NCBI GenBank assembly: GCA_964016885.1
Contig: OZ024762.1
Location: forward strand, 11,160,001-11,224,000
Direction of reading: 5' to 3'
DNA from: Eledone cirrhosa
Taxonomy: Eukaryota
Length of the DNA: 64,000 nucleotides
Each line of letters starts with the position of its first letter. Positions within the stretch are counted from its first letter, which is position 1. This document shows, one piece after another, positions 3,632 through 47,756 of this stretch. The notes below the pieces were generated by a model. It ran no database searches. It was given only the letters and a program-made list of their open reading frames with translations, and had not been told where the DNA came from. A program made the translations under genes and the position numbers.

Positions 3632-4042
3632 TATAATATATAAGATCAAAAGATGGTTAAAGGAGTTCCATGTATTTTATTATGCGCATTTCAAAAACAA
3701 ACATCATCATGCAATAATATTTGTGTTTTCATCAGATAAAACAGGAGAACATGATATGAAGGCTAAAAAACACTTGTGGATAGTGCAGTTTTGAATCAAC
3801 ATACTATCAACTGCACTATCCACAAGTGTTTTTTAGCCTTCATATCATTTTCTCCTGTTTTATCTGATGAAAACACAAATATTATTGCATGATGATGTTT
3901 GTTTTTGAAATAAAATACATGGAACTCCTTTAACCATCTTTTGATCTTATATTATGTATACTCCAGTCCTACAAACTGTAGAGTGCTTCTTATCCGATAT
4001 CTGCATTGTTTTATTGTACTACAATAAAACTCACCTCCTACA
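3632..4042. mobile_element. Palindromic hammerhead-bearing repeat, family A (Penelope pLTR-like), copy 1
   Basis: About 150-bp inverted arms (3641-3790 / 3809-3950). Intact HHR on the minus strand at 3673-3743; the plus-arm HHR has a deletion after GAAA. An extra tail at 3961-4042 is on one arm only. (TA)n on both sides. Confidence 0.75.
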
Positions 4043-5550
4043 TATATATATATATATATATATATATATATATATATATATATATAGCTGTCGAAACGGC
4101 TGGAGCTCAGCTGTCGTGGTCCTGACTCTTTTCCTATGTGTACATACACACACAAACACACAAACACACACACACATATATATATGTGTGTGTATATGAA
4201 TATTATATATATATGAATGTATGTACTTATATGTGTGTGTGTGTTTGTACACACACACACACACACACACACGCATACAGCGGAGTACTCCTATTTTGAC
4301 TGATAAGCTCTTATATATTCCCATATTTAATGTAAAGTAATTAACATAGATACAGAGAAGCAAGCACACACACACACACACACACACACACACAAGCATA
4401 CACACACACACACATGCATACACACACACACATGCATACACATACACACACAAGCATACACACACACACACATGCATACACACACACACATATGCATACA
4501 CATACACATACATATATGCACATACAGCCAATACGCAGAATAACATCATGCATACACTCACGCTTTCATCTCTCACACACACACATATATATACATATAT
4601 ATACATATATACACACATATATATATATATATATATATATATATATATATATATATATATACCCACACACACTCATACACATATTAAAACTGGAACGTGA
4701 CATATCGAAAGAGATATGTATATTACGTCTCTCTCACTCTCTCTGTCTGTGTCTCTCTCCCTCTCTCTCTCTGTCTCTGTCTCTATCTCTCTCTGTCTCT
4801 CTCTCTGTCTCTCTCTCAGTATATATATATATATATATATATATATATATATATATATATATATATATATATATATATATATATATAAATATATACATAT
4901 ATATATATATATATATATATATATATATATATATATATATATATATATATATATATATATATATAAAATACGTAGTTAAGAAAGCCACAACAATGCAGAG
5001 GGAAATCTCGAGGTAGGGAGTGAATGATAGATAGGAGAAACAGGTGAAAGTGAAAATTGAGAGAGAGACAAAGATGAAAACAAAACAAAGGTAGAAGGGT
5101 TACCGTAGTGGAGATTTAATCCCAATATTTCGGGCTCACGCCCATCAACGGGGGAAAGTTCCAAAAGGGGGGGAAACAGGCCAAGCGGAGAAAGTTGTGA
5201 TGTCGTTAAGACAGGAATGCCGTTATTCGGTAATTACAGAGGCAATTACAGAGGCAATTACAGATTACAGAGGCAATAAACATAAAAGAATTACAACCAA
5301 AATTAAATAGAAAATATGAGTGGAACAGCAACATCACAACTTACAATTAAGGACAAAATGAAAACACACACACGCATAGAACAAACAACCAACCAGTAAC
5401 ATGTAAATAAACAAATAAATAAATGAACATAAACACACACAGACACCCGGATGTGGCGCATGCGCAGACTGAGCACACAACACACACACAGAAACAAAAT
5501 GGCGTAGGACAGAACAAAGGAGAGGCACAGAAACAAAGAAAGGAATCCCC

Positions 5551-5595
5551 AGTCACTGAAGAGGTCACAGAGTGTGTGACGAAAGAACTATGGCT
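5551..5595 (+). ncRNA. Hammerhead-like motif with an extra nucleotide after A9
   Basis: agtca-CTGAAGA-g-gtcaca gagtg tgtgac-GAAA-gaac-TA-tggct. Related degenerate copies at about 12270-12312 (+) and 34630-34672 (-). Confidence 0.55.
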
Positions 5596-7315
5596 ATATA
5601 TAAACAACTATCTGGTTGTGGAACCAACCAACCAATCAGAAATTTATAAATTTATAAATTTATTATAAATTTATTATAATAAATTGAAGTGAAAGCAACT
5701 GGTGCGTGTGTTTCTTATTGGCAACATGACCCTCCCAAAGTATAACAATATACATATATATATATATATACATAAAATTACAAGAAACGAAGCGAGCCGT
5801 GTGGTTACTGTAAACAAAGTTTAAGATGGTAATATGGACGGACCAAGAGAAGAACCCCTTCATCAGCTGTTAACTGCAGATCATAGATGTTTCGGCGCTT
5901 AAAACAGGACATCGAAATCGATCAGCAGCGCGCCCAAGGCTTTTTATCCATGAGGGAAAGAAAAGAAAAAATAGCGAGGAGAAAGGAAGAGAGAGAAAAA
6001 AGGAAAGAGAGAAAAACTAAGTAATCAAACCGAATGAGGGGGGGGGGGGGGTACAGAGAAATGGAATATGCAAGTGAGTAACCGAGGAGAAAATAGAATA
6101 AGTTATAACGAACCGATTAGACTTAAGTATTGTGGTGCAATAACTAGGAGCGATATAGTTCCGTGCGATCTCAACAGAGTGAGGGTAGAGAGAGAGAGAG
6201 AGAGAGAGAGAAAGACGGAGCAACCGGAAGTGAGAGGGAGAAGGGAACGGGAGATAATCCAAAAGAGTTTTACAACGTGTGTGAAACATGTCGTAAATAT
6301 ATATATACATGTCAAAATATATATATATATAGGTAGAACACTGGAAGGTAATATCCGTTGTGGTAGAGCACTCAGTTCATTATATATATATATATATATA
6401 TATATATATATATATATATATATATATATATATATATATATATATATATATATATATATATATATATATATGGGTGGGTGTGTGTGAATGTATACTGTTA
6501 GCAGATATACATCATTAGGTATATAATATAGACACGGTGCATAATATTATCATATTATTTCATATACAATATAATCAGGTGTATATGATATCATATTATC
6601 TGATATATATTATCATTTCATATGTAACATCGTGAGACCTCACTTGTTCTGTTATCAATAATAGAAAACAGAAGCGTAGCGTTCAAATATTGATTCACGT
6701 CAAACGGTATCGATTTTAATGATCTAATATTGATTTTAATTATCTATTATTGATTTCTTATATAGGTACAGAGTCACACGTCAACCAATCAATCGATGAA
6801 CTAAGAACCTAAAGAGATTTAACCAAATACTGAAAGAACTTTTATTTACAACTTTACCTCTTCTGTTTACCGACATTAGAGAGTGACAAGGAATTGAAAG
6901 ATCTGATGTTATTGCCTTTTCCCATTGATTAAATCACCTTACCAAAAGATTATCGTTGAATTATTTCGATTCTCTGTTTCAGAATTATTGGTAAAAGACG
7001 TTCATGTTTATCGATTATAAATTGTACCAATGTTCAGTAAAATATAAATGTGCCAAAGACATCGTGACTATAATTTTGAATGACCACAACTCATTCAAAT
7101 TGATATCCACTCTTGAGACCAAATAAACATTTTAGCTAATTAAACTATGATAAAAAAATCGACAGATTTATCAGAAAAAAGAAATAATTTATTAATCTGC
7201 TGCAGTTGTCTTTAGTTTTGGGTTTAAATTTACAGAACTTACATCACCCGTGTATGAATATATCGTCTGATTCTAAATATCAAGGACATTGTAATAAACA
7301 TTAGAAGTATACAAA

Positions 7316-46349: not shown

Positions 46350-46703
46350 AAAGAAAAAGAGATGAAATCGAAAATGCAACTGAAGTCTTATTTTTAAAAA
46401 AAATATATATATTTATTTGGTTCCTTTACCGGTTTCGCAGTTCTTCTGCTTTTCAAAAGGTGAGTTGAGATGGAGGGTCTGTGGATTTTCTCACATGTGA
46501 GAAAAACCACAGACCCTCCATCTCAACTCACCTTTTGAAAAGCAGAACTGCGAAACCGGTAAAGGAACCAAATAAATATATATATTTTTTTTTAAAATAA
46601 GACTTCAGTTGCATTTTCGATTTCATCTCTTTTTCGTTATACTTTCACTCGTGTAGGACACCTCGGTTATTTTTCATTTTGTAAAAAAAACCTCACTTTC
46701 TAA
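46350..46703. mobile_element. Palindromic repeat family C with U3-A8 hammerhead motifs
   Basis: Arms of about 145 bp centred on tcacatgtga (46491-500). HHRs at 46423-46460 (-) and 46531-46565 (+). Tail on the right arm only. A shorter palindrome of the same family lies at 47382-47540. Confidence 0.75.
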
Positions 46704-47106
46704 TATATATATATATATATATATATATATATGCTTTCATATATTTTTATATCTGTATATCTGTTTGACCCGAAAGAGGAGATTGAATCTTCGCTGTGTG
46801 GATAATTAGTTTAACCACCATCTCAGTGTGTTTGGCCTTTAACGTAAGTTGTAAGCTCTAATTCTTTTGAATTATTGAGCGCTTGCCTCACAATTCGAAA
46901 GTGATTTTTCGTTATTTCATAGGCTGAAATTCGATTCTCGCTAATTTTTACTTATATATATACATATATATATATATATATATATACACACACACATGAG
47001 GGCGGCCGACAGAGGTAGAAACTGCTAAATTACCGGCCACCCTCCCGTCTCTGATTTTCAACACCATGGATTTTTATCTGTTATATTCCTTCGTTATATT
47101 TTGAAT

Positions 47107-47163
47107 TACCTGATGATGTCACCGGATTCATACTGAACCCGGTCATTGAAATGATCATAGTAT
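47107..47163 (+). ncRNA. Hammerhead motif (family H)
   Basis: tac-CTGATGA(47110-16)-..accggattca tac tgaacccggt..-GAAA-tgatca-TA-gta. Confidence 0.6.
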
Positions 47164-47756
47164 AATAAACCTTTCAAGGATTTACACCAGAACTTGCCTC
47201 CTGTTATTTTGTAATATATATATATATATATATATATATGTGTGTGTGTGTCTGTATGTAAAAGGTAAACAGTATATGGAAGGGATATATTAGGTTAACG
47301 CTTGATATAGCAGGAAGAGGGTCTAACTTTTTTCGGACGCTAGTCCTATACATACATGTAAATATATATATATATATATATTAGAAAGTGAGGTTTTTTT
47401 TTACAAATTGAAAAATAACCGGTGTCCTACACGAGTGAAAGTATAAAGAAAAAGAGATGAGATCGAAAATGCAACTGGAGTCTTATTTAAAAAAAATAAG
47501 ACTCCAGTTGCATTTTCGATTTCATCTCTTTTTCTTTATATATATATATATATATATATATATATATATATATATATATATATATATATATATATATATA
47601 ATATATATATATATATATATATATATATATATATATATATATATATATATATATATATATATAAATATATATATATATATATATATATATATATATATAT
47701 ATATATATATATATATATATACATTGCAAGGTTAGTCTAGGGTGCTAGATACCCAG

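Follow-up and report, generated by a model that had tools for sequence, protein, structure and literature searches.

Head-to-head, one-tailed palindromes in Eledone cirrhosa DNA and their probable origin as 3′ ends of Hydra-clade Penelope-like retrotransposons

We analysed a 64-kb stretch of Eledone cirrhosa DNA (contig OZ024762.1, positions 11,160,001 to 11,224,000; hereafter the window, numbered from its first letter) in which asymmetric palindromes of five families, A to E, are embedded in (TA)n repeats. We consider it probable that these palindromes are 5′-truncated 3′ ends of Hydra-clade Penelope-like retrotransposons, arranged head to head by twin priming at insertion. One arm of a palindrome terminates at a family-specific site (site 1), and the other runs on through a tail to a second fixed site, the tail end (site 2); on the strand that leaves the target both arms are antisense, one beginning at the site before the tail and one at the tail end. 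The simplest reading, we infer, is that each nicked strand of the target primed complementary DNA (cDNA) at a site of its own.

Geometry and identity of the palindromes

Palindromes were located by self-BLAST after masking of simple repeats, and their arms were then aligned. All 13 palindromes that an original prediction from the sequence had listed were recovered where it had placed them, to within a few bases of TA ambiguity, and the extra tail of 60-90 nucleotides (nt) that it had described on one arm of nearly all copies is present in 12 (~88 nt in A, 75-80 in B, 64 in C, ~60 in D and ~70 in E). A 5′-truncated inverted copy, head to head with its partner and with a tail at a single end, is a trait of Penelope-like elements, and these 12 copies display it. 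The exception is A-15040 (copies are named by family and left-hand coordinate; Table 1), in which neither arm has a tail and one arm is 17 nt short of the usual end. The predicted fixed end of the short arm was also borne out: in all 10 measured copies of A, B and C it lies no more than 1 nt from site 1, the ends in D and E being judged by eye. Five further two-armed insertions (B-18815, B-19108, B-27428, G-10176 and G-40680) bring the total in the 64 kb to 18, besides several solo arms of either type, and (TA)n flanks, a Hydra-clade trait, accompany the 18, three of whose ends adjoin (GA)n, (TG)n or (CA)n.

The centres of the palindromes vary among copies, as had been proposed, yet they cluster: measured from site 1, the short arm extends to -163 in both tailed A copies, to between -51 and -64 in six B copies, and to -150 (one palindrome and one solo arm) or -50 in C. 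Variation of the centre is thus by itself no proof that each palindrome formed independently. Arms within a copy are 90.7-100% identical (13 arm pairs in A, B, C and E, namely 12 listed copies and B-27428), whereas pairs across copies of one family are mostly less alike (78-98%), reaching 100% among B-27428 and B-18815 and in one 20-nt overlap. The predicted excess of intra-copy over inter-copy identity therefore stands as a tendency, the closest match of an arm being usually, but not always, its partner. Target duplications are mostly hidden within (TA)n, with weak candidates at A-15040 and D-27919; a compound duplication considered at B-21607 was rejected. B-30469 (30403-30754) has (TC)n(TA)n to its left and (TA)n(AG)n to its right; the two flanks stand in inverted and not in direct relation, which may be due to chance. 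The palindromes lack the symmetric terminal inverted repeats and constant internal sequence of class II miniature inverted-repeat transposable elements (MITEs), and no tandem arrays of their families occur in the window, such as the head-to-tail hammerhead monomers of non-LTR (long terminal repeat) retrozymes.

Two sequence motifs place these units among Penelope-like elements, the origin that had been predicted for them. The first is a hammerhead ribozyme: a relaxed descriptor matched the window 13 times, where 20 shuffles averaged 0.3, and 10 of the 13 lie in A, B, C and E arms, all in the sense that ends in the tail; a strict descriptor gave 6-7 matches against 0-1. The A, B, C and E hammerheads are of minimal type I, mostly with a short or palindromic stem III, and that of D is a variant core without a UH triplet. 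This minimal form, including a U3-A8 variant of the core, is reported in Penelope pseudo-LTRs (PMC4209133). Rfam models gave only sub-threshold matches in the window, mostly to microRNA models, with the hammerhead not among them. In each unit the hammerhead is followed, after 20 to 80 nt, by site 1.

The second motif is a hairpin in the tail that starts a few bases 3′ of site 1 and consists of a CTC/GAG outer stem with a two-base bulge on its 3′ strand, followed by YAC or TGC. Its descriptor has 13 matches in the window, where 30 shuffles averaged 0.53, always within tails and just 3′ of site 1; family C has a G-U version, and the same search surfaced families G and H. Free-energy folding of the tails gave a weak signal (z -0.02 to -2.45); the evidence for the hairpin is the descriptor together with covariation seen by eye. 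Also by eye, the D/E tail motif corresponds to the 3′ end of Hydra-2_Ajap and to the very start (5′) of Hydra-1_Ajap, the A tail resembles the 3′ end of Hydra-1_Crog and the B tail that of Hydra-2_Amil, while three other Hydra consensuses end ~35-40 nt past the hammerhead, in a TA-rich end before the tail motif (supplement to Craig et al. 2021, PMC8557442). Exact matches of four window motifs numbered zero in the accessible part of that supplement, which lists (TA)n as the target of nearly all Hydra families, one from Octopus included. The shared hairpin argues strongly for assigning D and E to the Hydra clade; A, B, C and G would join them by resemblance. The window also contains two Hydra-type open reading frame (ORF) fragments (51499-52329 and ~61857-61955), neither of them joined to a palindrome or recognised by Pfam; a CxCX5C linker can be seen by eye in the first of these and in P0001.

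We also noted solo arms and other relatives. Family H consists of solo arms with the tail hairpin, at 19719-19926 (+) and 46758-46962 (+), which share a start base and both end in (TA)n. Another hammerhead family is present as solo arms only, also ending in (TA)n, at 9923-10158 (-), 15374-15598 (+), 28359-28613 (+), 31525-31700 (-), 32005-32157 (-) and 51068-51215 (-); three of these copies have one 5′ start in common, and there are two 3′ end points ~35 nt apart. A hammerhead-like pair with a palindromic stem III (28648-28760 and 47099-47213, +) includes, by eye, one member that stops at a TA site and one that continues. A lopsided palindrome at 53371-53700 lacks the Hydra hairpin, and its long arm resembles the sequence downstream of a hammerhead at 50173-50103 (region 50173-49960, -); it may belong to another Penelope clade. 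Finally, a hammerhead-bearing end at 61657-61575 (-) leads into (TG)n and is arranged back to back with the decayed end of a Hydra-type ORF plus 3′ region (~61820-62320, +), terminating in (TA)n.

A related family and a twin-priming model

With the D/E tail motif as query we obtained 91 metagenome loci, of which 15 represent one family in AT-rich, animal-like DNA and 76 were set aside as non-matching; a 24-mer of family B retrieved none. One of the latter 76, L080, holds at 1884-2005 another family with the same hairpin, on a contig with mirror-image flanks that is probably an assembly fold-back. The 15-locus family (the L038 family) links the motif to coding sequence. In L038 the order is ORF end, hammerhead core, site 1, tail and TA run, and in L033 the tail runs on into a 5′ leader and the start of the next ORF; the next tandem unit therefore opens with the tail (as its first ~75 nt), and the tail end, too, is an internal site. 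This is shown in the family that shares the D/E motif; the window families themselves do not display it. The original prediction had taken the distal site to be the RNA's 3′ end, which L033 and the 5′ start of Hydra-1_Ajap contradict: both sites are internal. The L033 and L038 translations carry the published Hydra marks RWK, DKT and CxCX5C along with a C-terminal endonuclease (by eye and not from a tree), and L038, L033 and L089 each combine reverse transcriptase (RT) and GIY-YIG domains in the ORF of the same element.

Eight of the 15 loci are two-armed, and in six of these the short arm ends at 0 to +3 relative to site 1; the remaining two are a diverged match (L067) and a copy with a different end (L063). 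Among six insertions with both flanks, three have target duplications of 14-15 nt with TA at start and end (0 of 30 mismatched flank pairs do), two are in pure (TA)n and one is without duplication. Three of the six lie in AT-rich non-repeat DNA, so that self-complementary (TA)n, on which the predicted mechanism had leaned, is not needed. Insertions compared with L033 have TAT in common between element and target at both sites 1 and 2. Together with the window families, in which homology with the target at site 1 spans 2 to at least 6 nt (per-family chance 0.04-0.19, for families that are related and not independent), this supports the short UA(U) homology that had been proposed for both sites.

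We hypothesize the following sequence of events. The endonuclease would nick both target strands after TA, leaving 3′ overhangs; judging by the target duplications, these would end in TA and could pair with UA(U). Site 1 would receive one of the 3′ ends and site 2 the other, each by pairing with UA(U), and each end would then prime synthesis on RNA, probably on a single molecule; the copy begun at site 2 would lag behind. Both cDNAs, which are of the same sense, would terminate ~50-165 nt on, frequently within or close to the hammerhead, and would then be joined via 0-4 nt of microhomology. A more detailed version, which we regard as plausible but hold with slightly less than even confidence, is a paired target-primed reverse transcription: nicks 14-15 nt apart would leave TA-3′ overhangs, two enzyme subunits on one RNA would start at two UAU motifs flanking a bulged hairpin whose conservation extends from cnidarians and echinoderms to this genome, and the trailing subunit would displace the first cDNA, so that a single reaction would directly yield both inverted copy and one-sided tail.

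A further observation concerns the offset between the arms. A single RNA serving both primers, with a trailing tail-end copy, should yield large offsets in favour of the short arm, and this is what is seen: in all nine cases with offsets of at least 10 nt (7 of 21 measured with a scripted ruler, plus B-27428 and G-40680) the short arm reaches further upstream (two-sided p ~0.004, calculated by hand).

Several points weigh against this model. The 10-nt threshold was picked post hoc; the other 14 of the 21 offsets, at 9 nt or less, comprise 4 positive, 3 zero and 7 negative; all non-zero offsets stand at 11 to 7; and the asymmetry on the scripted ruler is smaller than in a tally by eye of 11 clear cases to 1. 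The solo tail-bearing arms C-22544, B-20229, G-44730 and L038 may be the missing class of opposite offset. End points differ from the usual in A-15040 and L063, one centre is common to L036 and L049, and the arms of B21606 and B30468 have closest matches other than each other. Site-2 homology rests on the L033 family and not on window families, and no ORF is physically linked to any palindrome family in the window. That the arms run into (TA)n had been predicted and is generally so, but the short arm of B-21607 adjoins (GA)n and the tail end of D adjoins (TG)n; these ends suggest that the RNA site is set by structure and that pairing merely helps.

Alternative explanations and independent reads

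One alternative, which we think unlikely, retains the same elements and supposes that just one cDNA, with its primer at the tail end, turns back on itself at a hairpin such as hammerhead stem II, serves as its own template and is joined to the target at site 1; Arkhipova et al. (2013, PMC3846280) put forward a similar idea of self-priming. The centres of B and of the second family do cluster in or near the hammerhead, the arms of one copy are usually each other's closest match, a 7-nt insert in L067 looks by eye as if copied after fold-back at stem II, and 14 of 21 centres are near symmetric. On the other hand, fold-back predicts a tail arm that reaches at least as far upstream as the short arm, and all nine large offsets are opposite. 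Furthermore, the arms of B-18815, G-40680, L056 and L061 overlap by no more than 5 nt, with little or no sequence in common; they cannot be copies of each other, and a single fold-back cannot yield them. The original picture of a fold-back centre is therefore wrong for some copies. A hybrid of two primers with fold-back of the site-1 cDNA is counted here within twin priming.

It is likewise improbable, in our estimation, that the palindromes are non-autonomous elements copied whole via RNA from a few masters, with an inherited short-arm end and with centres that vary by slippage or later deletion. Non-autonomous Penelope derivatives have been reported (PMC8557442; bioRxiv 10.64898/2026.07.22.740005), the 5′ reaches of A and C recur to the base, and the centre shared by L036 and L049 also fits. 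However, B-27428, B-18815 and B-15657 are 96-100% identical and have three unrelated junctions, which bears out the proposal that palindromes formed at insertion. B-27428 has 190 nt of upstream element sequence that is found in other copies too, and random deletion of centres does not account for large offsets that are one-sided.

Read depth bears on the same alternative. B-27428 served as reference (372 nt) for two raw-read runs, X9 and X10, from other samples with the same species label, and for two contig sets. Some 25,000 reads per raw run match it. Upstream of the B centre zone all four data sets lose depth by a factor of 23 to 41, as palindromic masters would lead one to expect; AATT cut sites confound this loss in X9 and X10, and subfamily divergence in the upstream part lowers all four counts. 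In addition, one inverted loose end, at 27722, is common to 31 contigs of set X1, a pattern that a palindromic master would produce and that weighs against twin priming; the read-end pile-up at 27722 is probably AATT-related. Pile-ups at 27603, 27677, 27718 and 27733 were considered as RT stops and rejected, lying on AATT sites or on a common variant that creates one.

The original prediction had named absence from independent raw reads as a sign of library artefact; head-to-head junctions are present in these reads at the family level, and the architecture is genomic at that level. X9, X10 and X1 hold several distinct joints in which the tail arm is cut at 27466-27521 and the opposite arm begins at 27726-27736, some of them in both raw runs, and 1471 and 1770 reads of one loose-end class pass from the tail end straight into (TA)n. 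X1 may be the source of the window itself and hence not independent. It also counts against twin priming that the reference shows just one joint geometry as a skip, the majority of joints not being displayed. Fold-back artefacts of library preparation or assembly are very improbable: no read or contig among those listed spans a single window locus end to end, and L080 looks like such an artefact, but the arms within copies differ by 0-9%, one joint with nearly identical 38 inserted letters recurs in both X9 and X10, and an unrelated assembly has the same architecture with target duplications. Ordinary MITEs with TA duplications, which are likewise short, high-copy, palindromic and TA-flanked, can be set aside with near certainty, being contradicted by the asymmetric ends, variable centres, solo arms, hammerhead and Hydra tail motifs, and by a related family joined to an RT-endonuclease ORF with 14-15-nt duplications.

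Window inventory and relation to known systems

Table 1. Penelope-like insertions, solo arms and coding fragment in the window (window coordinates)
Feature	Coordinates	Strand	Details
Family A insertion	3638..4041	+	Antisense short arm 3638-3807; tail arm 3809-4041; hammerhead 3735-3681 (-); tail hairpin 3961
Family A palindrome without tail	15040..15356	.	Hammerheads 15119-15065 (-), 15257-15311 (+); possible 8-nt target duplication (TA-rich, weak)
Family A insertion	31092..31504	-	Tail arm 31092-31335 (-); short arm 31340-31504 (+); hammerhead 31407-31461; tail hairpin 31172 (-)
Family B insertion	15657..15839	-	Tail at left
Family B head-to-head, arms not overlapping	18815..18919	+	59-nt short arm and last ~48 nt of tail; not in original prediction
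Older family B tail with ~9-nt short arm (by eye)	19108..19197	-	Not in original prediction
Family B insertion	21607..21810	+	(GA)n adjoins short arm
Family B insertion	22280..22469	+	
Family B insertion	27428..27783	-	Tail arm 27428-27533 extends 28 nt past fixed site; not in original prediction
B-27428 short arm	27534-27783		Full hammerhead 27683-27766
Family B insertion	30469..30658	-	Tail at left
Family B insertion	40810..40990	+	
Family B solo short arm	4085..4136	+	
Family B solo tail-bearing arm	20229..20363	-	
Family C insertion	46351..46702	+	Hammerhead 46456-46427 (-); tail hairpin with G-U pairs at 46643
Family C insertion	47382..47536	-	Centre within T/A run
Family C solo tail-bearing arm	22544..22753	-	5′ end is same base as C-46351 centre; hammerhead 22715-22686
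Family D insertion	27919..28189	-	Hammerhead-like core without standard cleavage triplet; (TA)n(TG)n on either flank
Family E insertion	19931..20171	+	
Family E insertion	28930..29273	-	Hammerheads 29081-29036 (-), 29192-29237 (+); 23-nt tandem duplication at centre
Family E solo fragment	44557..44656	+	Hammerhead 44599-44644
Family G (new) two-armed insertion	10176..10385	+	Short arm left, tail right
Family G insertion	40680..40776	-	Tail-only arm head to head with ~18-nt short arm
Family G solo tail-bearing arm	44730..44900	+	Hairpin at 44822
Hydra-type Penelope-like ORF fragment	51499..52329	+	CxCX5C linker and GIY-YIG-type endonuclease; not joined to any palindrome

Beyond these elements, the window holds a cluster of at least seven intronless major-facilitator transporter genes, which we take to be SLC17-like (7298-8791, 12505-14010, 23497-24969, 38472-39973, 42555-44048, 55613-57058 and 58575-60020), with an MFS_1 match for the one scanned, one gene split by a frame change, and 3′ fragments besides. 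A 2733-nt direct duplication (54345-57077 and 57307-60039; 100% identity) includes one transporter gene and is either very recent or an assembly error.

According to PMC8557442, it is an open question how Penelope-like elements come by their inverted copies, tails and microsatellite-biased insertions. Earlier papers already describe inverted copies, tails and junction palindromes, as well as two start sites and (TA)n targeting. In the literature searched we did not find, for Penelope elements, strand-specific use of two sites (twin priming), UA homology, 14-15-nt TA...TA duplications or the conserved hairpin, part of which Pyatkov 2004, Evgen'ev and Arkhipova 2005 and Arkhipova 2006 may anticipate. 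The palindromic stumps are very abundant and record both junctions and the centre; they yield a specific, testable rule that assigns each strand its start site and names the RNA motif that counts and the target geometry that is cut. The tail hairpin is a practical signature of Hydra-clade ends, which annotation could mistake for MITEs or microRNA-like hairpins.

Craig et al. (PMC8557442) give tails of 30-40 nt for Penelope-like elements generally and ascribe the tail to resolution by the endonuclease; for the Hydra clade, the conserved hairpin, 60-90-nt tails, UA homology and stump-sized palindromes are not described in the accessible part of that paper. Penelope insertions in Adineta vaga (PMC3846280) are alike in their head-to-head inverted copy, optional tail and junction palindromes, with target duplications of 8-10 bp. 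They differ in having a 31-nt tail and in being explained by self-priming, possibly on an antisense template, and microsatellite targeting goes unmentioned in the accessible text. In LINE-1 (L1) twin priming (PMC2837659) a second target strand primes on the same RNA, as we propose here, and the result is an inverted segment between target duplications. Our insertions are unlike those of L1 in having two fixed sites and arms that in most cases share 40-150 nt of overlap. L1 normally yields segments free of overlap, with its first primer on the poly(A) tail and a second site that varies.

The one in vitro study deals with Poseidon, an element of Anolis carolinensis (Frangieh et al. 2024, PMC11167929), whose protein cuts and extends both target strands, starts at two sites that bound the tail and is predicted to form a dimer. 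Our insertions resemble it in the proposed use of two strands, in two internal sites that bound the tail, and in a preference for AT-rich targets; hammerhead cleavage is not needed by Poseidon, and the window arms likewise run through the cleavage site. Poseidon belongs to another clade, however; its initiation is reported to be non-homologous to the target and without a difference between strands, and inverted copies are not addressed in the accessible text. The Poseidon study accounts for the tail and not for the inversion, whereas twin priming would explain the joint signature of an inverted copy plus a tail.

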